From Convolutriloba macropyga (taxonomy: Eukaryota): a stretch of DNA of 63,920 nt. This document shows positions 4,669 to 34,300 of the stretch, in pieces. The translations under genes were made by a program, and so were the position numbers. The stretch is from assembly GCF_964194025.1 (NCBI RefSeq), contig NC_134477.1, positions 59,334,001-59,397,920 on the forward strand, given 5' to 3'. The notes under the pieces are model-generated. The model was not told where the DNA came from. It saw nothing but the letters and a program-made list of their open reading frames with translations, and ran no database searches. The stretch's first letter is position 1. Each line of letters begins with the position of its first letter.

Positions 4669-6684
4669 TTATGACTTCTTGACCTGATAAATGTGTTCGT
4701 TAGTTGGATGGTGAAATTTGGGCAAGAACAGTCCGAATTTGCTTTCGATGCCAGCGAAAGCCAGTGACGCTGTTTTGAGTCCTCCAATATGATCTGGATT
4801 TGTAGGCGCAATTGTTTCTTTGAGAGAGTTAGCTTTCGCTCCTTTAGGCTTCGCTTTCGGCTTCGGTCCTCCGAAGTCAACGGGCAGCAACCTTTGCAGC
4901 AGCTCATAGGTCAACAATGTAACACCGAATTGGGGCGCAGATCGGAATACCCGTTGGTTGGCCCCCACCCAAAATACGCGTCCACCTTCCTCTCGAAGTA
5001 GCTTTCGGGCACAATCGATCACGCCAGTGTATACTTGTTGACCTTCTCTGGCTTTCACTTGCAGTCTGGTTTTGATGACATCCGCCGGGGTAGTTAGGAA
5101 AGGTGCCGGCACGCCCGCTAGAACACCTGCGAGAAACATGTATGAAAGAGGTAAGACACCCTCGTCATTTGTGAACGCGAGTTTCAAATTTGCGTAGATT
5201 GGGAAATAGATAGCTGAGAATGGAATATCACGCAGGAAACAAGCTCTGGATCCTTTATAGAGTCCAGTCAATCCAAGCTCTCGGATAACTGAGATAGCAT
5301 TTATCTTCTTGGTCGTTTTGACCTCCCCGGCTACCTGCAGTCGAATCTTGACAATTTCGAGGGGGTTGGTGAAGATGACCTGGCACCCTCCGGCGGTTCC
5401 ACCAGCCAAAATTTCACCCCAAAGTGGGTATGTACCGTCTTCTCTGACAACCTGATCCCTGACTATATCATTCATCGTCAATTTGATGGCCTTTTCAGGA
5501 GCCACTCCAACCAGTTGGGGAGGGAGACCTCGGTAGAGACCCAAGTAGCCTTCGAATCTGATGACTTTGAAGAAGCAGTCCCAAAAGTTTTTGTACATAA
5601 CCTCTCCAGGTATGGATGATCGTTGATTTTGCAGCCTTGTTTTGCATAAATCGATGGGATAGACAGCTGTCGCACCACAACACCCGGCTATTGATCCCAG
5701 ACCAAATCGGTATACGTTTTCTGCAATTGCCAGAAGCGCTCCTCGTTTATCCGCCGGCGCAGGAGCTGCCTCCGTTTTGGTCTCCACTGGCACTTCTGGC
5801 TCTAAAGGCCTGGGAATCAGTTTCTCAAAATCAGCTTTTGTTAATCGGCCCGCTTCGTGGTTGAAAGAGACGATTTGGAACAAAAGTTCAACTTCCTGAG
5901 GTGTCACGTCGGCACGGTCTAAGGCAGTCTGCATGTACTCGTCTTTCAGAACGAAATTCTCATTCTTTCGCTTGGCTCCTGTTTTTGCTTTCATTGTGTC
6001 TTCGAATAATTTGTAAAATATTTCGATGTTTGATAGTACCTTGTTAAGGGCAAGAAATGATGAGTAGCTGATTTTGTTTCCTTTAGCTAAGGCCACAAGA
6101 TTTTCCGATATAAACGGTGTCATTGAATTACTTCGCAGCGATGACATAACTTCCTGGACATCAAGAGGGAAAATCATGCCATCTTTACTTTTGTCTCGCT
6201 TTTCGAAAGCCTGCTTCAGATGCTCAAGTTGCAGCCCATTTAACATTTGAGCAAAGTCAGAGTAAGGTAATTCTCTGGTTCTAGCTTCACCAAAATGTCG
6301 ATATACAAACTCGCAATTATAGTTGAACGGCAGCACTCCAAATGCCACAGTTTTTGAATACACTTCTTTGAACTCGTTGAAAGTCACAAATCCCGATTTC
6401 GTGGCATCAAACAGCCGAAAAACCATTCGATAAGACACATCTGGGGACTTCAAGAAAGTTTCAAATGCGCAGAATTCTTCAAAGGATATTCTGCCATCTT
6501 TTGTGGTGTCAACTACTCGAGTAAGCATTGCCATGCACTCATCAGAAGCGTCATTGTCGACATTTACACCAATAAAATTTTTGATGAAAGATGGTCCAGA
6601 TATGAACTGGTTTCCCTTGTCATCTTTCTGATCAACATATTTGGTGAACACAGCAGATAGTTCATCCCGAGTAACATCCGGCAT
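4669..6684 (-). CDS. SLC25A12/13: Calcium-binding mitochondrial aspartate/glutamate carrier (aralar/citrin), single coding exon
   Basis: 671-aa ORF: N-terminal EF-hands (DTTKDGRISFEEF, DATKSGFVTFNEF), three carrier signature repeats (PIDLCKTRLQ, PLEIVKIRLQ, PADVIKTRLQ), aralar-type C-terminus NPDHIGG...IESKFGLFLPKF. Confidence 0.96.
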   Translation of the reverse strand: MPDVTRDELSAVFTKYVDQKDDKGNQFISGPSFIKNFIGVNVDNDASDECMAMLTRVVDTTKDGRISFEEFCAFETFLKSPDVSYRMVFRLFDATKSGFVTFNEFKEVYSKTVAFGVLPFNYNCEFVYRHFGEARTRELPYSDFAQMLNGLQLEHLKQAFEKRDKSKDGMIFPLDVQEVMSSLRSNSMTPFISENLVALAKGNKISYSSFLALNKVLSNIEIFYKLFEDTMKAKTGAKRKNENFVLKDEYMQTALDRADVTPQEVELLFQIVSFNHEAGRLTKADFEKLIPRPLEPEVPVETKTEAAPAPADKRGALLAIAENVYRFGLGSIAGCCGATAVYPIDLCKTRLQNQRSSIPGEVMYKNFWDCFFKVIRFEGYLGLYRGLPPQLVGVAPEKAIKLTMNDIVRDQVVREDGTYPLWGEILAGGTAGGCQVIFTNPLEIVKIRLQVAGEVKTTKKINAISVIRELGLTGLYKGSRACFLRDIPFSAIYFPIYANLKLAFTNDEGVLPLSYMFLAGVLAGVPAPFLTTPADVIKTRLQVKAREGQQVYTGVIDCARKLLREEGGRVFWVGANQRVFRSAPQFGVTLLTYELLQRLLPVDFGGPKPKAKPKGAKANSLKETIAPTNPDHIGGLKTASLAFAGIESKFGLFLPKFHHPTNEHIYQVKKS

Positions 6685-6778
6685 TATACTCTGAAAATGG
6701 TCACCAAATTGTCACACTGGTTGGAATTGCCTCTTCAACTTTTTACATCACTTTAGACCACCTATATACAAAGTTGGA

Positions 6779-7818: not shown

Positions 7819-8328
7819 TTACAAATCGTGACAATAGTCTCGCTTTTCGAAAGCCTGCCTCAGATGCTCAGTTTGCAGCCCATTTAACATTTGAGCAAAG
7901 TCAGAGTAAGGTAATTCTCTGGTTCTAGCTTCACCAAAATGTCGATATACAAACTCGCAATTATAGTTGAACGGCAGCACTCCAAATGCCACAGTTTTTG
8001 AATACACTTCTTTGAACTCGTTGAAAGTCACAAATCCCGATTTCGTGGCATCAAACAGCCGAAAAACCATTCGATAAGACACATCTGGGGACTTCAAGAA
8101 AGTTTCAAATGCGCAGAATTCTTCAAAGGATATTCTGCCATCTTTTGTGGTGTCAACTACTCGAGTAAGCATTGCCATGCACTCATCAGAAGCGTCATTG
8201 TCGACATTTACACCAATAAAATTTTTGATGAAAGATGGTCCAGATATGAACTGGTTTCCCTTGTCATCTTTCTGATCAACATATTTAATGAACACAGCAG
8301 ATAGTTCATCCCGAGTAACATCCGGCAT
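7819..8328 (-). pseudogene. Truncated aralar duplicate (about the first 163 aa, EF-hand region only)
   Basis: 169-aa ORF identical to the aralar N-terminus except T13I and QLEHLK>QTEHLR, ending in 6 junction-derived residues (YCHDL tail). Confidence 0.88.
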
Positions 8329-9390
8329 TATACTCTGAAAATGGTCACTAAATTGTCACACTGGTTGGAATTGCCTCTTCAACTTTTTACATCACTTTAG
8401 ACCACCTATATACAAAGTTGGATATTTTCCGTTTGTGCCCCCCCCCCAGTAGTTATGCATCCCCAGTTCTGCTAAACTGCCCTGTACTAGACGACGTCAG
8501 AAAAAAACAACCAGACTGGAGTGATACCTGGAAAAACCCAAACATAGCGCTTAATCTCTGGAACACCTGGATAGGGAGAGCGGGCCCCAATTAACACACA
8601 CACACGCATCCCCAGTTACAGAGCAAGTACCATTACATAGTAAACTACAATGCAAAAATTTGGCACGTTGCAAATATGCACCTACTAAGCTGGGGGGCAC
8701 AAACCGAAAAGATTCACAAAGTTTATCAGCACTAAAACAAATCAATATATCTAATGGTACTCTAATGAATTTGTTCTCTAAGAGAACACTAGGCAGCAAA
8801 AAAGGGTCCTTCCCATTATAGCCCCCCAAAAATCAAAATCAAGTTATAGCATACAATTAAATTCATCATTTATGCTTACAATTGTTGGTTACAAGTTTTT
8901 GTTTTGTTCCAGTATCGAATGCTATTGTTTCCCATTTATGTTTGCAGGTTTCTACAATTTTCATTAAGTTCATAGGAGCCATTTCGTATTATCTCTGTAG
9001 CAGCTGAAATGCGGTTATGAGAAGTCAACTAAAATCAATTATAATGGGCAAGCCCATGTCATCATCCGGCGGCTCACCTACAATGATTTCTGATTTTGTG
9101 TTAAAGAAGTGGTTATTAATTTCAGTTGCTCGCCTACATCGATTTCCGATTTTGTGTTAAAGAGGTGGTTATGAATTTTCATCTGGGGGGGGGCTATAGG
9201 TTACTTGCCCAATAAGCTGGGGGGGGGGCTATATTGGGAAAGACCCACAAAAAAGACCACATATTTAAGAGGACGGCATTTAGAAAAAAGTCAATTAAAA
9301 CAAAGCCCCTACCCGGAAAGGGTAGTCGGTCAAACACGGGGGCGGCAAGGCAACTCCTTTAGACATTTACAAATCGTGACAATAGTCAAA
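7837..9390. repeat. Recent tandem segmental duplication of ~6193-7700 (aralar 5' CDS plus upstream region)
   Basis: Near-identical to 6193-7700 with scattered substitutions; GTC microhomology at the 7837-7839 junction; internal ~50-bp re-duplication near 9125-9180. Confidence 0.93.
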
Positions 9391-9487
9391 ATTAAAGCTC
9401 TTTTTGACAGATATTAGGTGGTGATCAGCAGTTATTTATGGGTCAAAAGGGAGGAAACCAAAATCTATACCAAAATCGCCTAGCGCA

Positions 9488-10867
9488 GGACATTTTGGTA
9501 TAGAGAAAACGTACAAAAGAGCTTGCGAAAGGTTTTATTGGTCGTGCATGAGAAGGGACGTAGGAAACTGGATAGAAAACTGTGACGTTTGCCTAAAAAG
9601 GAAAGGCACTAAGCAGAAACATCGGCATTCACTCACAAAATGGAAACCTAGTCATCCATTTTGGCAAGTATCTCTGGATATCATGGGTCCACTTCCCGAG
9701 TCTCAGGGAAACAAGTACATTTTGCTTATCGGTGATCAATTCAGTAAGTGGTACGAAGCTGTAGCGTTACCCAATCAAGAGGCAAAAATTGTGGCAAAAG
9801 CGTTTGTTGAACACTGGATAGTAAGATTCGGCTGTCCAGTCAACCCACACAGTGACCAAGGGTCAAACTTTATGTCTAAATTGTTTCGTAGTCTTTGCAG
9901 TGAACTAGGAATTCAGAGAACATCAACCACATCCTACCATTCACAAGGGAACGCAATGATTGAACGAACAAATCGAACAATAGAAGAATGCCTCTCCTAA
10001 TATATAGGACAATACCAACACGAGTGGACTAATTTTCTACCCAAAGCGATGATGGTATATCGATCATCAATTCATAGTGTAACAAGATACAGCCCAGCGT
10101 TTGTGGTACTGGGTTTTCCACTGTCGCTACCTATAGACTGCTTCTATAGCACACCACAGACCACAATATATGCAACACCAAGTGACTATGTTTTCACGAT
10201 GAAAGAGAAACTGCAGGAAACGCACCACTTGATGCGAGAGTCTATGGATGTGGAACAAGAACGCCAGAAGTCGTATTATGATCGCAGTAAGTATGGGCCG
10301 AGCTATAAAGTTGGCGAAGAAGTGTTAGTTTTCAACCCAACGGTTAAAAAAGGAGAAACAAGAAAGTTTACTTCTTTCGATAGAGGACCATACATAATTG
10401 TTGAAATTATAAACGATTTGAATTTCAAGGTAGAAGATAAAAGGACGAGGAAAGCTATCAAGGTCCATTATGACCGACTGAAGAAATATAAAACACGAGA
10501 AAAACCATTCACGCCTGAGCCTAAGGCGAAACGAAAAACAACCAGTAAGGAGCAAAAGAATAGCAATTTGAACACCTCAGACGATGGTGATATAATTGAA
10601 ATAGAATCATCAACAGACAGTGAAAGCAATCTAAACACAGAAAATAAATCCGAAGCTGAGGATGCTAACGATTCACTAAATGTTACAAATGAAACGCCTG
10701 AGATTGAAGCTAAAGAATCAGAGCAAGAAACCTCTAAAGGGCAAGAGAAGGCACAAAATGTTCCCGAGGGGGGAGGTGCAACTTCATCGAAAGCTACCGA
10801 GTACACTGAAAAAAAAACCAGCAGAAACAAAAATTCCAAAACCAGAAAAAAAGCAACAGGAATCTAG
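9488..10867 (+). pseudogene. Gypsy integrase (Zn-binding, DDE core, GPY/F module, long acidic tail); one in-frame stop at 9998-10000
   Basis: GHFGIEKT...RFYW..MRRDV...CDVC; LDIMGPLP; HSDQGSNF; SYHSQGNAMIERTNRT; RGPYIIVE...VHYDRLK. Confidence 0.92.
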
Positions 10868-11059
10868 TAGTAAAACAAAAAGTACTGAAGAAAAGATTAA
10901 TAGTAATGCGAAGGCACCAAAAATGGCTACAAGGTCTAGCAGTTGATTAAAATCGGTGCCTGAGAGATTAAAAAATTACTTTACTGAGCAAGATGAGGAG
11001 TAATTTAGCAGCCAGGAAACTGATGATGTTTTTGTTTCAGGAAAATCCAGAAAGAAATA

Positions 11060-12882
11060 ATGGAATCGAAAAGAAAGACGAGTTCGTCTGGAGCATCCTG
11101 TGATGGAATATCACTATGTTTGTATCTGGCATTGCTAGCCATTTTTGCTTCTCCTTCCTTTTTTATTAAATTATACGGCTATGGTTTTGACAATATCGTA
11201 TTAACAAAAATAAATTCTCTGGATCACAGTACAAACTGTGATAACAAAATTCGAGTATGGAAAACAATAGAAGAAGGTAGTTTGATATATGCTGATGTTC
11301 AGCTTGAGATAAAATTAAGATTTTGCATGTATGAAGCCTCATATACTGTGTCTGCACTTAAAAAGAGTAATGTATATGACGATGTTGTCTTTATTACCAA
11401 AAACTCAAGACTCCTAAAATCCATATATCCAATAAACGAAGGAACCTGTAGGAGCATTTGGCGAAACAAAAACTTTGCTTTACCAGGTTTTGGAGATAAA
11501 AACTTTATAGTCAATAATTCAGTAACGGAAAAGATTTTACAACAAGCAAGTGAAACTACTTATGCCGAGGAGCATAGCCAGAGCTTCATGAAAAAAAATA
11601 ATCGTGAAGATGCTATGTATGCTGAGCCTGTAGAGTGGGTTTCACCTACAGAAGTAAAACTTATTGGAAATGTGATGATCAATGCAAAACTTTACATCGG
11701 AACAATTTGGGGAAAACTGATACAAAGAAACCTCTTAAGCTTTAAGGATCCCCTAGGTTTCTCGAAAACTGTTTTTATCAAAACCACATATTTTGAAGAC
11801 GATTTAGTAAACTATTTTTTTGAAAATCAAGGTGAGCAAACATGTCAAACGATCAAACGCTTTAATAAGGAGGACCCTGTAAAAGTTTTTGGTAACAACA
11901 AGACCACTTTTATCAGCGGAAAAACATTACACAAAAACAAATATGAAGATTTTGCATTAGAAATCTTAGAGGAAAAAGCAATTAGTTTGTGTGGACAGCA
12001 GGTGAAAACAACCGGAATTCCAGGTGTTTTTTACTCCGAGGAAAGTTCAGAACTGAAAACTGGTAATCTTAAAATAACCATGGAAATGTTTCTTTCAAGC
12101 GTTGTTGACACCTTGAATTTCGAACTTCTCAAGGAGAGAGAAATTTTTTTATGAAAGTTAGAACGCTCCAATGCGAGATTCAACGACTAAAAATTCAAAC
12201 TATGATTGAAATATCAAAAAACATGGTTAGTCCATCGGTAACGCTCTTCGAGAAAGGAACTCACGTCGAAAGAGCAGGATCTGTGTTATATGTTCATAAA
12301 TGTGCAAAGATGGTAGCAACAATAACTAAACTTCCTTTTTGCACAGAAGAAGTTCCTGTGTTAGTAGAGGGTCAGAATTTTTCTTCTATTAGATATATGG
12401 ACCCTATTACAAAAATTTTGTATCATAATTATACAATCGCTGCCTGCAACCCGCTGTACCAAAATGTTGTGAAATTGGAAGACGGCAGTTTTCAACAATA
12501 TGGAGAAACGCTGAAGAAATTCAATCGTGAGATATATCAGTGGTCGATGAATAATAACTTAAATGTAAGTGATGAAAATCTGCATCGCAGCCTTTTCTCC
12601 AAATCAGACGTAAAACAGAGTCAAATTGCACGAACAATTCGCCATAATAGTAAAGGAATTATCAGTCGGGAAGCATTCCGAGATTCGGATGGAAAACACA
12701 GTCATGAAGATTTTATTCATTGGAACGCTCAGTTCCAAAAACAATTTTTTCTAACAAAAGAAATAACAATTTTTCGTAACTTAAAAACTGAAAGCTTATA
12801 CGTTTGGTTAAAAGCTAAGGACATTGCTGTGTCAGTCTTAACAGTCTACCTCATATTCCAAGTTGTGAAAAAATTTTCCTAA
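11060..12882 (+). pseudogene. Envelope-like glycoprotein resembling chuvirus/Jingchuvirales class III fusion proteins; frameshift in T-run near 12143-12151
   Basis: Signal-peptide-like SLCLYLALLAIFAS; motif CEIQR...GTHVERAGSVLYVHKC...CTEEVPV...YMDPITKIL...C; several N-glycosylation sequons; C-terminal hydrophobic IAVSVLTVYLIFQVV; env position after integrase. Confidence 0.72.
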
Positions 12883-13087
12883 ATTGTTCATCTATTTAGG
12901 ATTAGTCATTAATGGAGCCTCCTGGCAACAACTGTTGCGGAATCTCGACCCTGTAATGTGAACACGTATGTATAATCAATTACTCAAATTAGTTAATGAG
13001 CGTCGAGAACAAAAGAAAATGATTGAAGAGAAAGAGTCCTTGAAAGAGTCGGTTGTGTAAAAAAAGAAAAAAAATGAAAAATGAGTT

Positions 13088-13295
13088 GTCTTGAGTTCAA
13101 GACCCAAAAAAAAAATGAAAATGACCTGTCTTAAGTTCAAGACCAAAAAAAAATTAAAATTAGTTGTCTTGAGTTCAAGACCAAAAAAAAAATTAAAATT
13201 AGTTGTCTTGAGTTCAAGACCAAAAAAAAAAATAAAAAAGAGGTGTCTTGAGGTCAAGACCATTAAAAATAAGGGAGAAGTCTTGAGATCAAGAC
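13088..13295. repeat. Array of six 16-bp palindromes GTCTTGA-NN-TCAAGAC separated by A-rich spacers
   Basis: Copies at 13088, 13128, 13166, 13205, 13245 and 13280 (period 35-40 bp). Confidence 0.92.
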
Positions 13296-13341
13296 TGAAA
13301 ATTTTGAGAAACTTTAGAATCAAAAATGGTTTCTATTAAAC

Positions 13342-14243
13342 ATAGCAGGCAGTGAGACCCCACAAATTGGTGAATATGTGTACTATAAGCCAGCGTTGTG
13401 GAAAGTTATTTCGGAGATTTCCCCGGGAGTGTACCGAGTGGAATCTTGTCTGTCACGGACTCGGAAGGTGTCTACACTAGAATTTCCGGCACCCGCCAAT
13501 ATTCGGTCCCGAGCTCTCTAGACTGAAGTGGAACTGCAAAACCAGTGCGCGCAGTTAGAGAAATTGAAGAGTACAAACTCTTTACTCCAAAAGGATCTTG
13601 TTGAGCTTCGACAAAAACTAGACAAACATTGCGACAAAGCCAAAGAGGGAACAAGAGAAGCATTGGGAAAACTGAGCGCCGAGTGTGAGGAGCTAAGAGA
13701 TAACCTAAAGGCGGCGGCAGCTAGAAATGCCGAACAAGAGCAGTCAATCGACTTACTTAAGCAGGAGTTGGCCGATCTAAAAGTCAATACTGATAGAAGA
13801 GCGAAGCCATGGAGAAAATGGAGAAAGAGAATGACCAATTGAGGTCAGAGCTTCAGCAGTTGGAAAACTATAATCAGTACTTGGCGAGCGATTGCCGAAG
13901 GAAAGACACTATAATTGATAGACAAAAGCATTTTTTGAAGAACGAGAAAGCCAAAACGAAGGCCACAGAAAAGTGTTTATTCGAGATTCGGAAAAAAAAT
14001 GTATTGAATCGGCCTGCGACATTGTACGAGATTTTGTTGGTAAAAAGTTCTGCTTCAAAAGATCAGATCAAAAAACGCTAGCACAAAATGAGCTTGTTGA
14101 CGCACCCTGATGCTGGTGGAGATGAGGAGTTTTTCAAGACCATTAATCGAGCGTACCAAATACTGATGAACGATGGGGCGCGAGAAGCGTACAACAATTT
14201 CGGATTGGACGAGGCAGAGAAAGTCATGAATGACGAAAACTGA
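13342..14243 (+). pseudogene. Accessory ORF: SH3/Tudor-like N-terminus, coiled coil, C-terminal DnaJ (J) domain; two stops and one frameshift
   Basis: Reconstructed: IGEYVYYKPALWKVISEISPGVYRVES; heptad-rich ELQNQCAQLEKLK...; YEILLVKSSASKDQIKKR*HKMSLLTHPDAGGDEEFFKTINRAYQILMNDGAREAYNNFG (HPD motif). Confidence 0.85.
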
Positions 14244-14371
14244 TACCTAAACTTTTTATATGAAAAGTACAAACTTTTTGTTTTTTAAAACGTTCAATTA
14301 TCAAGAGCTGTAAAATTTGTTTGATTTTATGTGAGTGAGTGGCACACTCTATTCTTATTGAGAGGGGGCAG

Positions 14372-14768
14372 TGTGAGTGTCACACGTATGTTAAAAAAAA
14401 GGATGTACTAAAAACCTTGGGTTTCAAAGTCAAAGATTTAGTTTAAATTTTAATTTATTACTTGATTAATGACTGACACAATCTTGACAGGTGTCGACAG
14501 ATTGAAATAGACAAAGCTCGGGCGTCGAGCAATACTAACAATTGTGATATATCAGTATTTACTTGGTTAATTTACCACGGTAATAGAACCGATATTGGGT
14601 ACGGACAAAACTGAGGATAAAATTCATTCATTGAACAATAAACCCACCTTCAGAGTTAAACACTCAATTAGATCTTCATTTATTTGAAACCATTCTCTTC
14701 TGCTTTTATCTTTTTATTAATTAAACTTCAATCTTTGTATTTTTAAACAAGTACCACGCTCAATTACA
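14372..14768 (+). repeat. Putative 3' LTR of the Gypsy-type element (right end approximate)
   Basis: Starts TGTGAG immediately after the purine tract; AATAAA at ~14637; candidate end ...caattaCA; no partner LTR in the window. Confidence 0.55.
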
Positions 14769-14782
14769 AAAGATAATACATA

Positions 14783-15349
14783 TTGCCCACGGGCGGCTGC
14801 TATACTGCTTTTAAAAACACTCGGAGGCTATCTTGCTTATCGACGCAAAGAACGATTTGTCTCAACCGTGCTATTGCCTTCCAAAACATAGAAAAAATAG
14901 ACCCTTCTCTCTGCCATTCCAAATGTAATTCATATCCTGAACGATCAAATTTGTTTATTAACAAACAAACAATATTCTCTCAGAAAGGTACAACCCAAGG
15001 CGACCCCCTTGAGATTTCGATGTATGGAATTGCCAGTATCCCCTTAATTGAACTTATTGGCGATTGCTTCATATTTCAAAAGTGGTATGCTGACGATGGC
15101 AACGTGGTGGGCTCTCTTGATAAAGTGAAGCTTTTTGACTCGTTGAAAAAACATGGTCATGCTTTCGGTTACCATCATACTAAATGCCACATAATTACCA
15201 AAGAACATCTTTTTGAAAACGCTTTTGATCACAACGAAGTTGAAATAGCTGACGGTTGTAAAGTTCTTGGTAGTTTAATTGGTTCTGATAATGCAGAAAT
15301 GAAATTTGTAGAAAGAAGACTAAAACGGCAGTTGTTGGAAAATGTCTAA
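14783..15349 (+). mobile_element. Non-LTR retrotransposon reverse transcriptase fragment (possibly CRE-like clade)
   Basis: GTTQGDPL and WYADDG RT motifs; 26-bp tandem duplication at its right end. Confidence 0.78.
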
Positions 15350-15599: not shown

Positions 15600-16545
15600 C
15601 TGTAATTAGTAGTTTTATTGTATGAATACAAATTTACATAGTTAAATTAATTAACCAATAAATGTAATTTTATTTGTTTTACAAATCATCAATCCAAAAT
15701 AAGTCAATTCTTCGCCACAATAGATTATTTTTCATTCCAATACACATGGTTGTTTTAACGGCGAAGACCGAAACTTGGAAAAAGTATCCTGGTTGAATAG
15801 ATCATCTACTAGTTGCTTAAGCCATCAAAATTAAAATGGGAAAATCTTGCAAAAATAGAAATTAATGACCATGATCCGAAAATCCGTGCATTGTAAAGGT
15901 GCATAGATCGGTATTGGTTAGATTCATAGAAGTTTATTTTAGTTCGGGTGATTATAAATTCTTGACCTGATAAATGTGTTCATTTGTTGGACGGTAAAAT
16001 TTCGGCAGGAATAGTTCGAATTTGTTTTAGATGCCAGCGAAAGCTAGTGACGCCGTTTTGAATCTTCCAACATAATATGGATTTGTAGGCCTAGTTGTAT
16101 CTTTGAGAGAGTTAAGTTTCGCTCGTTTAGGTTTCCTTTTCGGCTTCGGACCTCCGAAGTAAATGGGCAGCAACCTCTGTAGCAACTCATAGGTCAACAA
16201 TGTAACATCTAATTGGGGCGCAGATCGGGATATCCGCTGGTGGGTCCCGACCCAAAATACGCGTCCACGTTCCTCTCGAAGTAGCCTTTGGGCACAATCT
16301 ATCACGCCAGTGAATACTTGTTGACCTTCTCTGGCTTCACTTGCAGTCTGGTTTTGATGACATCCACCGGGGTTGTTAGGGATGGTGCTGGCACACCCGC
16401 TAGCACACCTGCAAGAAACAGGTATGAAAGAGGCAAGAAATCCTTTTCATCTGTGAATGCCAGTTTCAAACTTGCCTAGAATGGGAAATAGATAGCTGAA
16501 GAGAAAATATCACGCAGGAAAGAAGCTCCTCTATCCTTTATAGCG
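15600..16545 (-). pseudogene. Older diverged aralar pseudogene fragment (3' CDS plus 3' UTR)
   Basis: Colinear with ~4310-5262 including the 3' UTR; premature stops (~16027, ~16477) and a frameshift near 16335. Confidence 0.9.
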
Positions 16546-17063
16546 TTCAGGTTATGAAATTCTTACTCCTAATAAAGGTCAGTATTCAGCAGAGTAAAAG
16601 AATTAAGAAATTTGATTCAAGTCAGATTTAATAAAAAACTTTCCATTTCTCGCAGAATTGTTTTTGGAAAAGTACATCAGACTGCTTGGGATTGCTCGAA
16701 CTTGGATTACTACCAAACTGACTCCAAAATTNNNNNNNNNNNNNNNNNNNNNNNNNNNNNNNNNNNNNNNNNNNNNNNNNNNNNNNNNNNNNNNNNNNNN
16801 NNNNNNNNNNNNNNNNNNNNNNNNNNNNNNNNNNNNNNNNNNNNNNNNNNNNNNNNNNNNNNNNNNNNNNNNNNNNNNNNNNNNNNNNNNNNNNNNNNNN
16901 NNNNNNNNNNNNNNNNNNNNNNNNNNNNNNNNNNNNNNNNNNNNNNNNNNNNNNNNNNNNNNNNNNNNNNNNNNNNNNNNNNNNNNNNNNNNNNNNNNNN
17001 NNNNNNNNNNNNNNNNNNNNNNNNNNNNNNNNNNNNNNNNNNNNNNNNNNNNNNNNNNNNNNN

Positions 17064-19880
17064 TTTCTTACTTTTTTTTCGTCTATTTTTGCAATCTTTT
17101 TTGATCAATTTTGACATTTGTTGGGGCTATTTTTGGCGTTTTTTCTATCATTTTGACGTTTTTTGGCTATTTGCTATTTTTGACGTTTTTTCAATCATTT
17201 TTGAGGTTCTTTTTGGCTAATTTTGACAATTTTCTTTGGCTGCTTTTGACACTTTTTCGGCTATTTGTGATGTTTTTTGGCTATTTTTGAGGTTTTATGC
17301 CTGCCAAGACTTGGATTAAGACTTGGCAAGTATTGGCTGAGACTCAGATTATGACTTGGCAAGTCTTGGCCGAGACTTGGTTTATAATTTGGCAAGTCCT
17401 GGTCAGGACTTGGATTAGGACTTGGCGAGTCTTGGCCAAGACTTGAATTAACACTTGGCAAATCTTGGCCAAGATTTTGATAAACACTTGGCGAGTCCTG
17501 GCCAAGACTTGGGTAGCACTTGCAAGTTGATTCCAAGGTCAAAGCCAACTTTTCGAAAAATTTCGAGTAAAAATCTTGAGTTCAAAAAAAAATTCACAAC
17601 GTGCAACGGTTTTTACAATAATTTTAGACACTTTCTGGAATCTGATGCAGACTGATGCTAACTTATTCCAACTGATGTACATTGATGCCAGCGGACCCCG
17701 GAAGGTCAAATTCGGCTGTTTTCAGGTGTTTCTGGGCCGTTTTCAGCAATTTTTCAGCCGTTTCAGTCTCTAAAATACGCGAAATCCCCAGATTTCTGTA
17801 CTTTTCAGATAAAAACAAATGTCGAACTTGAACCAAGGTAAAATTGTAACAAGGGGTGCGAATGTGATGGTCCCCATGATAGCACGAGGTTTTACACACG
17901 TTGCTTTATTTTTGACGTTTTTTTCGACAATTTTTGACTGTTTTTCCAAATATTTTTGGACGATTTCCCGACTATTTTTTACATATTTTTAGGCTATTTT
18001 TGACATTTTTCCGATCATTTCTGACTGTTTTTGGGCTATTTTTGATGGTTTTTCGGCTATTTTTGCATGTTTTTTCGATCATTTTTGACGTATCTTTCGG
18101 CTGTTTTTGACGGTTTTTTGGGCTATTTTTGGCGTTTTTTCTATCATTTTTGACGTTTTTTGGCTATTTTTGACGTTTTTTCAATCATTTTTGAGGTTCT
18201 TTTTGGCTATTTTTGACGATTTTCTTTGGCTGCTTTTGACACTTTTTCGGCTATTTGTGATTTTTTTTTGGCTATTTTTGAGGTTTTTTTGCCTGTCAAG
18301 ACTTGGATTAAGACTTGGCAAGTATTGGCTGAGACTCGGATTATGACTTGGCAAGTCTGGGCCGAAACTTGGTATATAATTTGGCAAGTCTTGGTCAGGA
18401 GTTGAATTAGGACTTGGCGAGTCTTGGCCAAGACTTGAATTAAGACTTGGCAAATCTTGGCCAAGATTTTGATAAACACTTGGCGAGTCCTGGACAAGAC
18501 TTGGGTAGCACTTGCAAGTTGATTCCAAGGTCAAAACCAACTTTTCAATAAATTTCGAGTAAAAATTTTGAATTCAAAAAAAATTTCGCAACGTGCAACG
18601 ATTTTTACATTGATTTTAGACACTTTCTAGGGGGCCCCTGGAATCTGATGCAGACTGATGCCAACTTATTCCAACTGACGTCCATTGATGCCAGCGGACC
18701 CCGGAAGGTCAAATTCGGCCGTTTTCAGGGGTTTCTGGGTCGTTTTCAGCAATTTTTCAGCCGTTTCAGTCTCTAAAATACGCGAAATCGCCAGATTTCT
18801 GTACTTTTCAGATAAAAACAAATGTCGAACTTGAACCAAGGTAAAATTGTAACAAGGGGTGCTAATGTGAGGGTCCCCATGATAGCACGAGGTTCTACAC
18901 ACGTTGCTTTATTTTTGACGTTTTTTTCGACAATTTTTGACTATTTTCCAAATATTTTTGGACGATTTCCCGACTATTTTTGACATATTTTTAGGCTATT
19001 TTTGACATTTTTCCGATCATTTCTGACTGTTTTTGGCTACTTTTGATGGTTTCTTCGGCTATTTTTGCATGTTTTTTCGATCATTTTTGACGTATCTTTC
19101 GGCTGCTTTTGACGGTTTTTATGGCTATTTTTGCAAGTTTTTTTTATCATTTTTGACATTTTTTGGGTCTATTTTTCACGTTTTCCCGATCATTTGTTAC
19201 GTTTTTCGGCTATTTTTGAAGGTTTTTTTTGGCTTTTTTTAGACTTTTTTTCGATCATTTTTGACGTATTTTTTTTGGCTATTTTTGACGCTTTTTCTGG
19301 CTATTTTTGCACGTCTTTTCGATCATTTTTGACGATTTTTGGCTATTTTGTCGTTTTTTTCGGTTATTTTTGACGTTTTTTCAATCATATTTGACGTTCT
19401 TTTTGGCTATTTTCGACGATTTTTTTTGCTGCTATTGACATTTTTTTGGCTTTTTGTGACGTTTTTTTCGGCTATTTTTGACGGTTTTTTTTTCCTGCCA
19501 AGACCTGGATTAAGACTTGGCAAGTAATGGCTGAGACTTGGAATAAGACTTGGCAAGTATTGGCTGAGACTTGGATTAAGACTTGGCAAGTGTTGGCTGA
19601 GACTTGGATTAAGACTTGGCAAGTATTGGCTGAGACTTGGATTAAGACTTGGCAAGTGTTGGCTGAGACTTGGATTAAGACTTGGCAAGTATTGGCTGAG
19701 ACTTGGATTAAGACTTGGCAAGTATTGGCTGAGACTTGGATTAAGACTTGGCAAGTATTGGCTGAGACTTGGATTAAGACTTGGCAAGTATTGGCTGAGA
19801 CTTGGATTAAGACTTGGCAAGTGTTGGCTGAGACTTGGATTAAGACTTGGCAAGTCTTGGCCAAGTCTGACAAGTCTTAA
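17064..19880. repeat. Composite satellite: T-rich ~20-bp units, GACTTGG-based units, ~1-kb higher-order duplication
   Basis: ttttggctatttttgacg repeats; ~17120-18100 duplicated at ~18115-19130; next to an assembly gap. Confidence 0.9.
19500..19866. repeat. 33-bp minisatellite, about 11 copies
   Basis: (agacttggcaagtattggctgagacttggatta)n. Confidence 0.95.
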
Positions 19881-20300
19881 ATGTGTTATCATCATATCTC
19901 TGAATCAGTACTGATACCTAGACTTGGAATAAGTGCTGATTCCCAGTCACTTGATTCCAAGTCACTAGTGGGTGACTCAGAGTGGCTATCACAAATTTTT
20001 AACTTGACGTTAACCTGGACTTTTTTAAGCGAGCATCTCGACTTTTTCTCGACAAAAATCGAATGCTCTAATTTGGTTCTGGTATATAATTTTGTGTCAC
20101 AGTTTCTCTAGACGCAGAATTTCATAGTCACCTAACCAAGCTTAAAACACGAAACGCGCACGTTTTAAAATGACGAAAGTTAACGGAAGTCAACTTGTGG
20201 CTAAGTAGCAACTTCTGGCATTTTGACTTTTGGCACTGCAGACTTTCGGCATTTTAAAATGTGCACGTGAGTGTTTTAATGTTCACTTCTTTTAATTTAG

Positions 20301-22345: not shown

Positions 22346-25300
22346 TCACAATTTAACATCGACCAATTCGTCTAAAGATTTGATCTGCTGGTCGAAAGCC
22401 GCTCGCATTTTGAGCACCTCACAGAACATCTTTTTCGCATTGTGATTGTCAATTTTGAGTTTGTTGAAATCGGATTCCTTGAGCGAGTTGATCTTCTCGT
22501 AAGTGTAGCCTCTTGTTATCATTGTGGGGTAGAGTTCGCCTAAAATGGAATCTTTCATTTATTTGAGAGAGCCTCTCCCTCTGAACTGAGAGCCTCCCAA
22601 TTACCTGTCGGCGCTCAGCTGTAATGCCGATCTCTTATTTCGTGTTTTCCTACTTTTAACTCTGTGAATCGAGTTTATGAAAATTTAAAGGGGTCATAAC
22701 TATATAGGTTATAAACCAAAGTCCACAATCTGAAAAATTTGAATTTGAGCACATGAAAGTATGGTCAGGCGCTTTTTTTCACACGCACAAAAAATACGCT
22801 TCTAAGTTAAGTTCTAAATTCTAAATTACGCGAAAAACCGAAATGTGAACGTGGACGATTTCAGGTTGAAAGGATGCCTGGGTCGAGCTGGACAGGCCGA
22901 AGTGACCTCTGATAAGACGATCTTCGAGCGCACACATGTTCCCGGTGCGCTCGAATTACATGGTCTGGAAAAAGCTTCGAGCGCACTTTAGTCTGGACAA
23001 TGGTCTGGAACTTGTCTGATCGGAGGTCACTTCGGTCTGGGACGGTCTGATCAGAGGCAATTTTGAGCGCGACATAAACCTGGGTGTGCACATAACAATT
23101 TCTCTCTGGTACCCCGGATTTGAGTGTCAAAATAGTTCGGCGCTTGTGAAGACGATATCATTAATAAGCACGGCTGAATTATATTAAATTCAAATTAAGT
23201 TTTAAGTTCCCGAATGCCCAGAGCGGGAACAGACTGGCCTATATCTGGCTTATATCTGGCCAGCATCTATGCCCTGTATCTGGACAAACAATTGAGATTT
23301 TACTGGCTGCACAAGTTCTCGCGTCAAAACAATGACATGAACGGAAAAAGTGACTCAATTATGAAAATAAGGAAAATATTAAAAGGTAGATACAAACATA
23401 TAGGAAAACCCTGCAGAAAATGAAAGATTTCCTGAAATCTCAAAAAGAGGTCAAGGGAAATATGTCCAAGATTGACAGATTACGAGAAAAAATTGTTGAT
23501 ATCAGCGACGTTCTGAGTTAAAAATTCACAAAAAAATTCTAGAAAAAATGGCCAAAAACAAATGAACCAATTTTAGGGTTCCTGTAACCGCGTTAAAACT
23601 GTTCTATTCAATTTCGAGTTCTTTTATAATATTATAAAAATTTTAAGGTCATTTTAGAGGTGTCACCCAATGAGAGGGGACCTTCGTTTTTGTAAGTATT
23701 GTCTCACCCAACGAGCAGGGAGATCGTAAATAGTTTAATGAAGATTGAAAAGAGAAGAATTTTTAAATTTAAGGAGAACAAGACTGATGGTATTAAAAAG
23801 TGCAAATAGAAAAAAAAATATACACATTTATGAATGAGAAACTGAGAAAGTGACACCAAACATAGTATAAAATGAAATGTTCACTTTTTATCAAAAAATT
23901 AAACCCACAGTTTTAGCTCAGGAAGCTAAGAACACTGGAAAACTTTCGAAAATACTTTATCTTCCTGTGGTTGCAATTCTTTTAAACAAAGCAAAAATTG
24001 AAAGCACAAAATTGTCATCAAAATTAAAACAAGTAGGAAGTGGACTGGGTAGTTCTTATCTTGTGAGCTTTGTATTTCAACACGCATATGTGAATCTGAA
24101 TACGCATTGCAAAGGGGCGATTTGATTTTGCAAGCAATTTTGAAGGCACCTTTAAACAGAACTTAATTAGGAAGTGCACGTTAAAACAAAATTTACACGT
24201 TTGAATACAACTTCATTTCAATATATTCGATTACTAATGAAGTTCTGCTTCAACGCTTTTTTCGCTTATGTATAGCTTTTTGAATCCAAACGGAAACAAA
24301 CTTGTCGTTGTGAAAGTTACAATTCTTGTGACTTTGTTAGGGCACGCGGTAATTCTTGGTTTCAATTTTGTTGAGACCTTGAAAGTTCTTTTGACCTTGA
24401 ACACTTCCCGGCCTCCTTGAACTCGTTCAATTGTGACATCTGTGGGCTTCCTTTGTTATTATCTTGCAAGTACAGTTGAGGGTACAAAGAAGATGATTTT
24501 GTTGAAACTGACAACTTGGTTTTTGTGAAAATTGTCAGAAATGATATCAATTTCATATAAAACTGATTCGGTACATATTTTCGATGGTGTGATCAAACGA
24601 ATTGGGAATCCTTGGGTGTTTCTCAAAGTTTAATCATTTAATTTGCTCCACGATCTTCTGATTCTTCTCGATGAAGGGGTATGAGGCGACTGACTGGTCT
24701 GATGTAAACTCCAGTTTGTGTTTTCACCTGAACAACACGAACAATGTTGTCATTACCGTCGAATGTCTGTATTATAGAAGCAAGCGGCCAGCACATTGGG
24801 GGAGTGTTGTCTTCTTTGATGATCACAATATTGTCCACTGTTTGTTGTACGTTTTCTGTCCTCCATTTGTTCAGCTGCTGCAATGAAGAAAAGTGTTCGA
24901 CACTCCATTTCTTCCAGAACTGACGAATCATTTTTTCTATGTTTCTCCAATGTCGTGACAAGGTGTTCTTCCTTGGTGAAGATGGCTGGGGTGTAGCTGT
25001 GATATGTCTTCCGATGATGAAATGTCCAGGAGTTAAAGCTAGGGGTTTGATGTCGGTTGATGGCGCTGTTAGAGGGCGAGAATTGAGGATGGCCTCAATT
25101 TGTGTCAGGAGAGTTGCGAAATCACTGGTTGATAACTTAGTCGATCCAACCTTTCTGTAAAGCTGGAGCTTCATAGATTTAACAGCAGCTTCCCACAGTC
25201 CTCCAAAATGTGGCGTCCTGGGAGGTATTGTAAACCAATCAATGTGATTTTGGCTCAGAAAATTGTTAATGAGATCCCTGAACTCTTCATCTCGAAGAAG

Positions 25301-28300
25301 TTGCCTGAATTCGAGTTCTCCTCGGGCTCCAATGAATGTTGTAGAATTTTCACTGTAGATTGCTTGGGGAGTACCGCGTCTTCCTGTGAATCTCTTGAGG
25401 GTATCGAGGCAATCTTCTTTGGTTAGATTTTCCACTGGCTCTAAGTGTATCGCCTTTGTGGTGAAACAAATGAATATAACTGCGTATGATTTTTGCAGTT
25501 TCTGTGAAGAATCTTTGGTATAAAACGGCCCGCTATAGTCCGTCCCAGTGAACTGGAAGGCAAAAGATCCAACTATTTGTTCTGCTGGCAGATCTCCCAT
25601 TAATGGCTGGCGTATGCGGGCGTCAAATCGTATGCAGTGCCTGCAGTTGTGAATGACTTTCTTAACACTGGCGATTCCTCTAGGAGTCCAAACTGTTTGT
25701 CGGAGGGCAAAAAGGGTCATCTGGGGTCCACTGTGAAGGTTTTGTCAAATGACTTTCTCGGATGAGTAACTCGGCTAGTGGAGATGTTTTTGGAATGATT
25801 ATGAGGAACTTTTTTTCCACGCTATACGGGGAATTTGCAAGACAACCATCAACGCGGATGACGTTGTTGTCTTCGTCGAAAAATGGGGCGAGGCTGAGTA
25901 GATGACTGTTTTTCTTGATACGCTTGCTGGATGATCCAACTGGTAGGTTTGAAGTTGAGTCTTCTGGTGTTGTTGATCCTTTTATATACCTGAACTCCGG
26001 CAGAAAGAGTTGTTGCATGATGCTGTAAAGGGCTATTCTCGCTGAGTGGAGATCTGATGGGGAAAGTTGATGACAAACACCAATTTGTCTTTTTGCTGTG
26101 ATGTGTTGCTTCTTCATCCCAACTGTTGATAGAAGGCTTGTTGGCGGCGATGAAAGACTTGATGATAAATCCGTCTGTAGCTCGTAAACAGATTCGTTCT
26201 GTGATTTGTGCTCCATTGATTCTTATTGTTTTTGTTGCCCTTCATTTGGACGTTGTTCATCGAAGAGCTGATGCTGTTTATTTGGGTTAACAAAGCTGTT
26301 AAATTCATGATAATAGTCTGGTGTTGAAAGAAAATTGCAGGATGGTGGAACCAAGTCAGTCGGTGTTGACTGGATTTCAGTGGTTGTTTGCTGAAGTCTA
26401 TTCAAACCTTGCGTAAATTGCTTTGCCTTTGACCCTGTGTGCTCGCCAGGGAGAGGGAGCTGCGGGCACAAATCTTCTGCTTCTTGACTGAGGTGATGGA
26501 TGTTTGGCTGTAGGGATTGGTCTTTATGGCTGCTCTGAAGAAGGGGCTGTGGTTGTTGGGAATCGTTTCGATAGCAGATTTTCTGGCGATGAGATGCGAC
26601 ATGATTGTTGCTGGAGAAACACGGATCTTCGCATGGATTTACCTGCAGGTTGGTTACAACAGTTTTTCTGTGAAATTGTTTAAAGATTGGTCTCGGGGGT
26701 TCATCTTGTGTTGTAGATGCTGATGATCTTGGTCGTTGTCAGAAGACTTTAGTTGAACATTCCAGTGCGGCTTTTTGTCAGAAACTGCTTTTGGTTTTGG
26801 TTTTTGATACGTATTTGAAAGATCAATTGCAGGTAGCGACTGACTGTGATTGTTGCTTGACCTTCTCTTTTTTTCTTGCTTGTAGTTGTTGAGTGAATAG
26901 ATTAACGTAAGCGAAGACTATTACAAGTTAATCTAATATTCTGTTGTCTTGCTGCTGATGCTGCGTTACTAGAGACAGTTGGGCTTATGAGTTTACTTCG
27001 CCTAAAGCGTCAGCTGAGGCGTAGCAGAGAGGTGTAACATCCAATGAAGGCCAAAACTGCTCGTCTTGACGCAACCAATTGGGTCCTTTCCACCAAAGTT
27101 GGTGATTAGGAAGTTTGTCGGCTGAAATTCCTTGTGATGCGCAATCAGCTGGATTGTCTTCTGTTGGTACAAACTTCCAATTTTCTGATGGAATGATGAT
27201 CTGAATCTTGGAAACTCGGTTAGCAACGAAAGTCTTCCATTTCCTAAGTATATCCTTAATCCAGGGGAGGGACACCTGTGAATCGGTCCGAGCAAAGACT
27301 TTGGGGTTGGGAAAACGGCTGTCATTGATGGCTTTTTTCACTGCTTGAGACAATTGCGCTCCAAGAAGTGCTGCACAGAGTTCTAAACGCGGGACACATA
27401 AAGTTTTGATTGGGGCAACGCTTGTTTTGGCTGTTATCACTTGTGTGTGCACTCGGTCGTCCATTTGCTCTCGCACGTAGACAACTGCGGCATACGCTGT
27501 GGTTGAGGCGTCACAAAACACATGAAGCTCCAAAGATGACGAAAAAAGTGCTGCAAAAACTCATCGTTCAAGTTTGATCCTTTCCACTTCTCTGAGTCGA
27601 TGCCGAAATCTTCCGTATTGTTCTAGGATGTTTAACGATAGGAATTGGTCCCAGGTCAACTTGTTCATCCAAAGAATTTGCAAGAAGGATTTCAACAAAA
27701 TGGTTGTTGGTGACAATCATCCGAGTGGGTCAAACAACCTTGTGACTTCCGATAACATTTTTCTCTTTGTGTTGCGAAATTCTTTGTCCAGATAAACTGT
27801 GAAGGCGAAACGATCTGGAACAGGGCTCCCCTTTATGCCAAGGGTTTTGACTGTGTAGTTGTCACTGTTGATTATCATTTTGTCTGAGGTTTCGCAAAAA
27901 CTGGAAGGCAATCGCTCAACAAGTGATGAAACGCTTTATGTTCATTTTCGTATATCAAAACAAGCTGTTTTCAGTGTTCCAATTATTTTGTCCTGAAGTT
28001 GAGCGGCGTGTTCTACATCTGAGGCTCCCGTGCTCTAAATCGTCCACATACATGTCATCATTGATTGCAAGGCGGAGGTTGCTGTTGGTGCAACTGTTTG
28101 CTAAGGCTTTGAGAGGTCTAACTGAGTGGTACGAAGATGATGCTATTCCATAGGTCACTCTTGTCATTCTGTATGTTTTCAGTTCTGTGTCATTTGGATT
28201 TTTCCATAAAACCCTGTGAAATCCTTGTCTTCATCGTCGATTTGAACTTATCGGTACATCTTGGCAATGTCGGCAGAAAGTGCTACTTGATGAAACCGAA

Positions 28301-31300: not shown

Positions 31301-34300
31301 TTGTATTATATAAACGTGGTAACATTCTATCGAAAAAACAAACAATTAAATCCTGGTAAAAAAGATTGGTGCAAAATGACATTCGGATGGTAATGCACTA
31401 AACGGATCTATTCTGTTTTGCCCCCCCCCGCAGCTTAGTGGGCTTATATATTTTACGCCCCCAGGCGCACGTTCTATACTTTTACATAGTAACGTGCTAT
31501 ATAACAACATAATTTGTCACTGGGGGCGCAAAAAACACTGGGGGGCTGAAACAGAATAAATCCCACTAAACATACCTAGTCCATAAGAATCCAGAAAGAA
31601 TCGAAGTCGTTCGGAGTCGTCTGGATCTGTAATCTCTGGTTGCTCACAGTACGAGAAGGGGTCCTCTACGTCCAGGACAGAACTGCCAGGACTTAAATCC
31701 ATGTTCTCAAAATTCTCGATCACTTCAAATTTACTCATGTTTTTTGGTTTTGCTTTTTAAGGGTAAATAAAATAGCCAAATTATAAATTTTTGTCTTAAA
31801 TTTAAGTTTTTTTCAAAAGTAGAGGGTTAAACCCTGGCCTGCATTTCTTTTCATTTTTTCAATTTTCCATTGCTCTGATTTTTGCAACAAAGTGTCCTCT
31901 AATTTAATGAAAAACTATAGAAGAGAAAAAAATAGGAATTCTAATCAACTCTCGTTGCGAGTCCACTTTTGCATAACTTGCCGATGAAATAACTTGTTAG
32001 CGCTCGATTGGTACTAAAAATCCTAAACCACGGCGAATGCTTTTGGATTCTCGAGTCGAAAATAGAGGTTAATCTTGTAAGAGCTTGCGAGGTTCTTGCA
32101 AGATTCTTACAAGACGTTGTTAAATCTTACAAAATTCTTACAAGATTCTTACAAGATTCTTACAAAATTCTTACATGATTCTTACAAGATTCTTACAAGA
32201 TTCTTACAAGATTCCTACACGATTCTTACAAGATTCTCACACGATTCTTACAAGATTCTTACAAAATTCTCACACGATTCTTAGAAAATTCTTATAAGAT
32301 TCTTACAAGATTCTTACAAGATTCTTACAAGATTCTTTCATGATTCTTACAAGATTCTTACACGATTCTTACAAGATTCTCACACGATTCTTACAAGATT
32401 CTTACAAAATTCTCACACGATTCTTAGAAAATTCTTATAAGATTCTTACAAGATTCTTACAAGATTCTTACAAGATTCTTTCATGATTCTTACAAGATTC
32501 TTACACGATTCTTACAAGATTCTTACAAAATTCTCACACGATTCTTAGAAAATTCTTATAAGATTCTTACAAGATTCTTACAAGATTCTTACAAGATTCT
32601 TTCATGATTCTTACAAGATTCTTACACGATTCTTACAAGATTCTCACACGATTCTTACAAGATTCTTACAAGATTCTTACACGATTCTTAGAAGATTCTT
32701 ATAAGATTCTTACAAGATTCTTAGAAGATTAACCTTTCCCTACAAGATTCTTACAAGATTTTTTTCTTTCAAGATACTTAGAAGACTATCTCGGTTATCT
32801 GTTTACGCCCTTCTTTTCTCGCCACTGTTGTTATATGAAGAGTGTCGAGAACAGAGTGGCAGAAAAAAAGACCAATCACCTGCTGTGTCTTAATTTATGC
32901 AACTTTTCTATGTCAGTCCTATAGAGTTTCAACGCTATCGAACGTTTTAAAGGTCAAAGTTCAAATTTGAAACATGCAGATATCTAGCAAAGCACTGCCC
33001 ATTTGCACACCCGAGTTTTTCGAACGTTAGCTTGCGTTGCAAATTTATGGGACTTACTATAGCGTGTCCCATAAAGTTGAAATCAGCGAGCGTTTCAAAA
33101 GCCAGTTAGAGTTCAAAGTTCAAATTAAAAACAAGTAGAAAAAATTGATAAATGAAGGCTTACTGAAAAAACATCGACATTTAAATAAGCACATTGATGC
33201 TCAATTGCACGTTTTTGGCGTTTTTCGAACGTTCGCTTGTTTCAACTTTATGGGACAGACTATATAATCGCACCGAGAGTTGATTAAAAATTTTACCACA
33301 AGGCTGTTTTCGCAATCTCGAAGCTGTTTAACAACCCACAACTCGGTTTCGCCTCGGAGTTTTCTACTTTTTTGAGAGCGATAACAACCCTGTGGTTATA
33401 TTCATTCCTGTTTTGTGTGGTTACTGCAAGTGAATCATTCGATGCTCTTTTTTTTCAAAACCAAAACCCTTTCCTGCCATGTCCGACTGGGGTGATCCAA
33501 AATCTATCTGGGAAAGTGACATGGCCAGCTCGTCTCCTCTGGGCGAATGACTACTTTTGGCGAACAAGTTACTCCCGCTGCTCGCGCTTAAGTTGCTAGT
33601 TGGCAAACTCAACTCCGAAAGTGACCTTTGAAATGACTGGGAAGGGGAGACGACACCCCACTCTTGGTTTTTCCTGACGAGGCTGAAAAAGAGACAGAAT
33701 GATCCAGACAAAGGCTTTACACTCGGGCTGAGGTGCGATTCGTAATGGTAAGCCCAGGTTTGGTCGATAAAGTAAGCAAGAATTATGCACTGAGGTCCAA
33801 AAATTTAGTGATAATTCCGGTGCAGCTGTAACAACATTTCAGCACTGTTCAGCAATTTAGTAAACAAAAAAAAAATAAAATGCATATAAAGGACTACCAA
33901 AGAATGTGCATTAGTTGGGACTGAAGATGGAATTGAAACAATCTAATTGGCGCAAATGTAAACTCTATTAAGAAATGAAATAAAGGAGAGCGAATTTAAA
34001 AAAAAATTAGTTCTTTCCTGAAGTGATTGTTTCTCATTTCTCCTATTTTTGAAAGCACTTAAAGGAACTAATATTGTTATTGCACAGTCATATTAAACAT
34101 TTAGGACTAAGGCGGAATTTCTAACAACGAAAATTAAAGATTTGCGCAAAAATAAATGTAAAAGATAGTAATAAATTTTCCAAAAATTCCTGAATTTAGT
34201 TTTTTTTTAAAAAAAGAAACTATAGCAGCGTCCTTTTAGTTTTTTTCACATTTGACGTTGACCGAAATTAGTGGTTGACTAGAACCCAGCGGGGGGCCGA

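Follow-up and report, generated by a model that had tools for sequence, protein, structure and literature searches.

A fourth gene encoding a J domain in an env-carrying Ty3/gypsy retrotransposon of Convolutriloba macropyga

The window analyzed here, a 63,920-nucleotide stretch of the Convolutriloba macropyga genome (NC_134477.1, positions 59,334,001 to 59,397,920), contains the 3′ part of a Ty3/gypsy retrotransposon with a remnant of pol, an env gene, and a further gene, ORF4, that ends ahead of the polypurine tract (PPT) and the 3′ long terminal repeat (LTR). This copy is a decayed, 5′-truncated member of a high-copy family (family A): the 5′ half of the element is missing, the window holds no second LTR, and the pol remnant is interrupted by an in-frame stop at 9998-10000. 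An initial annotation of the sequence had proposed a J domain hidden in ORF4 behind the TAG codon at 14079-14081, and this was borne out. With X placed at the TAG, the translation of 13797-14240 matches the Pfam DnaJ family PF00226 with an E value of 4.4e-15 and a score of 56 bits, the cut-off being 27.8; the match covers residues 76 to 133 of the translated stretch, or 14022-14195 of the window, and the HPD motif at 14103-14111 is intact. The TAG, a frameshift, the ORF4 stop at 14241-14243 and a distance of about 115 bp to the PPT are all as described, with 116 nt measured from the stop onward to the PPT at 14360-14371.

ORF4 of the window copy carries four breaks. The first in-frame start, near 13387, is lost; a second in-frame TAG, overlooked in the initial annotation, lies at 13519-13521; one base is missing at the frameshift near 13795; and the last break is the stop at 14079-14081. 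The start is present in all 39 other young copies of family A that have letters at this place. Each of the two stops is found at the same codon in 1 of 41 other young copies, and the gap at the frameshift in 0 of 41. The breaks are thus nearly private to this copy, which indicates decay after insertion.

A search of the genome DNA with ORF4 gave 630 candidates, of which 40 were scored, and these included 38 other full-length matches at 94-96% identity. Sibling loci continue to the LTR end in 28 of the 29 fetched, showing that the J-domain gene is part of the element, as had been supposed. An open frame of at least 304 codons that ends at the same stop is present in 15 of 30 loci examined. Ten of 20 loci fetched at 10 kb are measurable two-LTR copies, 7.1-9.9 kb long, with LTR pairs 93-100% identical and a matching 4-bp target duplication in 7 of the 10. 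Open siblings have the gene order gag (with a CCHC knuckle), pol, env (677 codons) and ORF4. The pol domain order is protease, reverse transcriptase, RNase H and integrase (PR-RT-RH-IN), with a GPY/F-type integrase C-terminal domain (CTD), in family A and in a second family of the same genome, family B. A TGGCGAC resembling a primer binding site (PBS) follows the 5′ LTR, and a PBS-like TGGCGACAG is common to both families. The LTR of family A has the ends TGT...ATA rather than TG...CA, and that of family B ends in ACA. The env genes of both families match PF24664 (5.5e-11 in an open sibling), the Pfam family from which alone the type of env was assigned, and the nearest named integrases are metazoan gypsy proteins, 35-41% identical. 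The element is thus an env-carrying Ty3/gypsy retrotransposon with a fourth gene, and it has been recently active.

Between env and ORF4, family A copies carry 4-14 palindromes; family B has none at that place (0/20). This array of palindromic 16-mers could be an enhancer, an insulator or a protein-binding array. Both families also form tandem units of 2.2-5 kb that are internally deleted and keep ORF4 and the LTR (L002/L016, L011/L024, L093 and L094); they were located with ORF4 queries, so that the apparent retention of ORF4 in them is biased.

The J domain is C-terminal in the ORF4 product, at residues 236-293 of 308. The AlphaFold model of the homologue P0063, built from an 11-row alignment (pLDDT 88.9), comprises four beta strands, a long helix and a J domain. 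Its best Foldseek match is the Sis1 J domain (E 4.9e-5), so structure prediction agrees with the original call, and the J domains of Sis1 and DNAJA1 in the Protein Data Bank (PDB) were matched at 1e-11 to 2e-10. Neither DnaJ_C nor the zinc finger was found in Pfam at an E value of 1, and there is no G/F region. The label DnaJ/Hsp40 that the gene had been given therefore holds for the J domain and not for Hsp40 or DnaJ proper, which have these regions behind an N-terminal J domain. The product looks like a class C Hsp70 adaptor, not a class A or B Hsp40, and it is probably soluble and dimeric through its coiled coil.

ORF4 is not confined to young copies of family A. A diverged protein query found an older subfamily of A, at approximately 75-80% DNA identity, in which LTR sequence lies behind ORF4 in 11 of 11 loci and env lies in front in 9 of 11. 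Family B, found with a distant-homologue query, has the same gene order as A and is 52-55% identical to it in pol, 31% in env and 27% in ORF4; its ORF4 frame is open in 14 of 20 loci, and 17 of 20 have the start codon. Other data sets contain intact homologues (P0063, P0068, P0083/P0218, P0109, P0118 and P0094/P0238) with 26-44% pairwise identity, none of them named. Nothing among the candidates scored in this genome comes close to P0094 or P0109 (at most 50% and 43%, over short stretches), and a query of metagenome contigs with P0109 found no relative. Members of the P0083 cluster and gypsy Pol proteins sit on sequences of equal size (9213, 8799 and 6614); these sizes, the sole basis here, hint that the distant homologues also lie within gypsy elements. 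A gypsy Pol protein related to this clade (P0252, 44% in integrase) has a precomputed match to the Macro domain PF01661. The HPD motif is kept in 38 of 41 young and 14 of 23 old copies of A, in 16 of 20 of B, and also in the distant homologues, and open homologues score 49-60 bits against PF00226.

For the analysis of selection, private and shared variants were treated apart, since copies decay neutrally after insertion. In 20 loci of family A, singletons in gag, pol, env and ORF4 have nonsynonymous-to-synonymous ratios of 0.96-1.21; for variants present in at least three copies the ratios are 0.29, 0.32, 0.21 and 0.31, respectively. Two results weaken the case for constraint on ORF4 within young family A: with 30 loci the variants in at least three copies (11/16) give a ratio of 0.50, a weak signal, and the two-copy variants give 1.8 with 5 stops. 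Young family A by itself is weak evidence of selection. The comparison of young (n = 42) with old (n = 25) copies of A, from which one tandem duplicate was dropped, gives a dN of 0.072, a dS of 0.58 and a ratio of 0.12 (p 2e-24); the ratio is 0.04 for the barrel (codons 24-66), 0.17 for the coil and 0.05 for the J domain, and the two other reading frames give 1.5 and 3.4. In family B, variants shared by at least 3 of 20 copies comprise 47 synonymous and 19 nonsynonymous changes and no stops (ratio 0.14, p 5e-15), with 0.11, 0.13 and 0.16 for barrel, coil and J domain; the singletons give 0.98, and the shared variants of pol and env 0.12 and 0.19. The loci were the top protein-search matches, which favors open copies, though to a small extent only, as the neutral singletons indicate. 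The p values assume independent variants and are approximate.

ORF4 is thus under purifying selection like pol and env, with ratios of 0.12-0.14 across copies, the comparison that had been put forward as a check. The Pfam match, the copy number and these ratios run counter to both outcomes named beforehand as damaging to the initial annotation, the lack of a DnaJ match and a one-off host retrocopy evolving neutrally; the latter is ruled out by the sibling copies that reach the LTR and by purifying selection. Gene position, copy number, selection, domain order and the intact HPD motif, taken jointly, make it practically certain that ORF4 is a maintained J-domain gene of this element.

The 5′ end of ORF4 differs from what had been suggested. 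The ATA at 13342 had been named as a possible mutated start codon, yet none of 40 young and none of 21 old copies has ATG there, and the ATA lies inside a predicted splice acceptor (13330-13345); a start codon at this place is ruled out. The AG of the acceptor, at 13344-13345 behind a pyrimidine tract, is present in all 40 young copies and in 16 of the 21 old ones. All 20 loci of family B have an AG that precedes the start codon by two bases and follows a branch-point-like motif. Additional open reading frames of LTR elements are typically spliced, according to PMC5408684, and together with the acceptors this habit makes a spliced mRNA likely for ORF4. Family A fits this picture less simply: no copy has an ATG in codons 1-23, and none lies upstream of the first barrel strand. 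Codons 12-23 are nevertheless constrained (ratio 0.10, p 0.03), which implies an upstream exon or a non-AUG start. Four sequencing runs of unknown kind proved to be contigs with even coverage; among the 15 joints listed, of 540, none is a GT-AG joint from the leader to env or to ORF4, a result that has no bearing on expression.

In a tree of 41 rows, the nine J domains of the elements form a single clade (support 100/99). The phylogeny suggested at the outset thus unites the element J domains and points to no donor, 24 of 38 inner branches being open beyond the element clade. The 19 loci examined near DnaJ_C matches yielded only two complete host J domains, neither of them close. A DnaJA-like query of the genome returned short J-domain matches only, mostly element copies as judged by their place and open-frame length. 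The nearest generic J domains have the same short HPDxGG loop, and one of six looked up had a name.

Table 1. Features of the element copy in the window
Feature	Position	Strand	Basis
3′ portion of pol, with integrase (H2C2, rve core, CTD) followed by an acidic tail	9479..10867	+	Pfam Integrase_H2C2 1e-15, rve 5e-13, Integrase_p58_C 1e-7
SH3-like CTD of integrase, including the GPY/F module; the ORF4 barrel likely descends from it	10301..10498	+	Integrase_p58_C
Predicted splice acceptor AG of env	11039-11040	+	Acceptor motif in 15/16 copies
env, Monjiviricetes-type fusion glycoprotein, frameshifted in the window copy	11060..13060	+	PF24664 1.3e-11
Palindrome array between env and ORF4	13067..13301	.	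~39-bp units, each a 16-bp palindrome plus A tract
Predicted ORF4 splice acceptor, pyrimidine tract and AG 13344-13345, includes the ATA once proposed as start	13330..13345	+	AG conservation
ORF4: barrel, coiled coil and J domain, broken in the window copy	13346..14243	+	
ORF4 N-terminal SH3-like beta-barrel, likely from integrase C-terminal domain, without GPY/F loop	13357..13503	+	Models, fold searches, profile tests
ORF4 coiled coil, length differing between families	13504..14012	+	Coiled-coil Pfam matches below cut-off; one long helix in homologue model
J domain, HPD 14103-14111	14022..14195	+	PF00226 4.4e-15; PDB J domains; dN/dS
Polypurine tract	14360..14371	+	Sequence; directly 5′ of LTR in siblings
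3′ LTR, 433 bp, ends TGT...ATA	14372..14804	+	Sibling homology stops at 14804; siblings have LTR pairs and 4-bp target duplications

Elsewhere in the window, an intronless gene for an Aralar/citrin-type carrier with EF hands and Mito_carr lies at 4669-6711 (−). A duplicate of its 5′ part (7825-8737, 97-99%) follows 1.64 kb downstream, and a diverged partial copy (83-87%) is found 11.3 kb away, at about 15600-16530. A decayed BEL/Pao element with Peptidase_A17 and DUF5641, of a kind that points to an animal genome, occupies 24638-29517 (−), and a non-LTR remnant with endonuclease and reverse transcriptase occupies 48028-51709 (−), with a C4/C1-like zinc-finger frame upstream. The window also holds an almost perfect hairpin (1353-1628), about 275 nt long and closed by a 3-nt loop, an 11-bp tandem array at about 31980-32900, and a T-rich array of 22/33-bp repeats in 1-kb higher-order units at about 16600-19930.

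The N-terminal 50 residues of ORF4 are modeled as an SH3-like barrel, which, like env, had been overlooked in the initial annotation. A weak Pfam match of one of nine barrel rows to Integrase_p58_C (E 0.17) led to a direct profile test, in which the nine barrels were compared with 120 gypsy Pol proteins, 82 of which had a match and a located CTD. The best match of the barrel profile falls inside the integrase CTD in 65 of these 82 (6.2 expected by length), with a top score of 19.2 bits (E 7e-6). A reversed profile places 5 of 38 inside the CTD, and thirty column shuffles place 0-15 there with a top score of 8.7 bits. The six barrel rows from other sources alone give 49 of 68, and the CTD profile outscores all 200 shuffles for 6 of the 9 barrel rows. 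The barrel profile found nothing above 12.2 bits among 177,635 PDB sequences, and the barrel has no significant match in Pfam or the ESM Atlas.

Several observations weigh against this ancestry. The nearest solved folds are PWWP, Tudor, KOW and SH3 (Z 6-7.8 among the rows listed, values up to 7.8 showing only a common fold), and no integrase chain is among the fold-search rows listed. The profile-profile comparison of barrel and CTD with hhalign reaches a probability of just 34 (E 4e-4), and the window's own CTD gives no match to the barrel in a single-sequence comparison. The GPY/F loop is also missing, strand one joining strand two directly in all rows that reach this place, and the binding mode of the parent may have been lost with it. 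On balance, the ORF4 barrel is probably a copy of the gypsy integrase CTD, as the profile tests suggest. The GPY/F module has been proposed to serve integration specificity, according to PMC3104679. If the barrel is integrase-CTD-like, the likeliest target of ORF4 moves to the element's own complex of integrase and nucleic acid.

The genome encodes several cytosolic Hsp70, and from the biology of J domains it is very likely that the ORF4 J domain activates an Hsp70. The initial annotation had suggested that Hsp70 is co-opted for particle assembly or uncoating, or to counter host defense; its recruitment is predicted from the J fold and the intact HPD. In class C J proteins, the domain beside the J domain directs Hsp70 to a single client; auxilin, for example, aims Hsc70 at clathrin coats. 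ClpX, in turn, takes apart the Mu transpososome (MuA). By analogy, ORF4 would be an adaptor whose J domain switches on host Hsc70 in an HPD-dependent manner and whose barrel would bring it to the integrase-nucleic acid complex of the element itself, which would then be remodeled; the incoming core would then be uncoated, or integrase would be released after joining. This complex is the likeliest client because the barrel most likely comes from the tail with which integrase contacts nucleic acid and integrase, and an assignment of the client to this complex or to the core is tentative, at somewhat less than even odds. The full scenario, in which the element clade duplicated its own integrase CTD, fused it to a captured J domain and drives Hsc70 to uncoat the core or to dismantle the intasome, is possible but doubtful. 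Most Ty3/gypsy elements, moreover, complete their replication with no protein of this kind, so that an essential role in uncoating or disassembly is not required.

The same parts could act on the host instead. In polyomaviruses, the J domain of T antigen works on Rb-E2F, and in a similar manner the barrel might bind chromatin or a silencing factor of the host, such as PIWI/nuage proteins, or else the palindromic array of the element, for Hsc70 to strip off or unfold a repressor. PWWP and Tudor are the top folds of the barrel, including Krimper bound to methylated Aubergine, ORF4 is no domain of Pol but a gene of its own that is probably spliced, and the adjoining palindromes would suit a coiled-coil dimer. 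Nevertheless, the sequence profile favors the integrase CTD and found no Tudor in the PDB. By eye, only two of four SMN-type Tudor cage positions are aromatic in alignment A4. Barrel (0.04) and J domain (0.05) evolve very slowly, unlike an arms-race surface, and the palindromes are absent from this place in all 20 copies of family B. Counter-defense of this kind is rather improbable.

An adaptor without any client in the element, which would occupy or redirect Hsp70 as a decoy or stress switch and so raise the heat-shock response or the chaperone supply, would account for the absence of the DnaJ client-binding domain from ORF4. It has a precedent in Rki of phage RB43, a non-generic J protein that interferes with DnaK and stabilizes sigma32 (PMC3486835). 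A J domain would suffice for this purpose, but no intact homologue has lost the barrel, and its constraint matches that on the J domain, which leaves such a decoy unlikely. Still less can be said for a lumenal co-chaperone of Env that recruits BiP, made by splicing the 5′ exon of the family A env in frame to the ORF4 acceptor: donor-like sites are seen by eye in env, and in family A codons 12-23 are constrained with no start codon ahead of the barrel, but Met stands directly before the barrel in family B (17/20) and in several distant homologues, and these have no signal or membrane segment. The least credible reading, to the point of being nearly dismissed, is a captured host J gene that hitchhikes with the element as a neutral passenger. 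Singletons in ORF4 show no constraint and half of the young copies carry breaks, but those in gag, pol and env are just as neutral, which is what decay after insertion would give; the lineages differ at ratios of 0.12-0.14, unless the shared variants are alignment artifacts, and the architecture is kept at 26-44% identity.

Reverse-transcribing elements are thought to borrow chaperones passively. ORF4, in contrast, is retained across families whose env is 31% alike, under constraint equal to that on pol, and it is a clear case of a new gene assembled from a foreign domain and, likely, a domain of the element itself. If the barrel indicates the client, ORF4 names a step that needs Hsp70, uncoating or disassembly after integration, and offers a natural reagent for testing it. 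Were the proposed remodeling of the integrase complex true, it would be a retroelement counterpart of auxilin or of ClpX-MuA and would bear on how integrase is removed after integration.

With other env-carrying Ty3/gypsy elements, the present element shares the gag CCHC knuckle, PR-RT-RH-IN, env, LTRs, PPT and 4-bp target duplication; it differs by the fourth gene after env. Class C proteins such as auxilin, zuotin and Sec63 likewise join a J domain to an unrelated targeting module and lack a G/F region or client-binding CTD, but ORF4 is encoded by an element, its targeting module is likely derived from integrase, and no host class C ortholog was found. Viral J proteins (polyomavirus T antigens, giant-virus DnaJ and Rki of phage RB43) have in common with ORF4 an HPD-containing J domain with a short HPDxGG loop. 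The ORF4 J domain weakly matches large and small T (E 7e-4), and fold matches reach giant-virus and phage J proteins. These proteins belong to DNA viruses, however, and the J domain of ORF4 is C-terminal, behind a barrel and a coiled coil, with no flanking domain in common.

The literature searched, including the available parts of PMC13524379 and PMC6338049, with Repbase-type annotations, subscription papers and bioRxiv supplements outside its scope, names no LTR element that encodes a J domain, and a J-domain-bearing accessory gene in LTR elements is apparently undescribed. The one "DnaJ" of PMC9004415 is the name of a neighboring gene. The closest parallels are the additional open reading frames of other LTR elements, namely, ORF3 of bdelloid elements (PMC5408684), CERV of Cer1 (PMC10309623) and the plant aORFs (PMC7264820), which, like ORF4, are captured accessory genes near the 3′ LTR. 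ORF3 of bdelloids encodes a GDSL esterase and a DEDDy exonuclease (PMC5408684), and the accessible portions of these sources name no J domain in any of them. ORF4 is present in addition to env, and it is set apart by its chimeric make-up, in which a module likely derived from integrase is joined to a co-chaperone domain that was captured.
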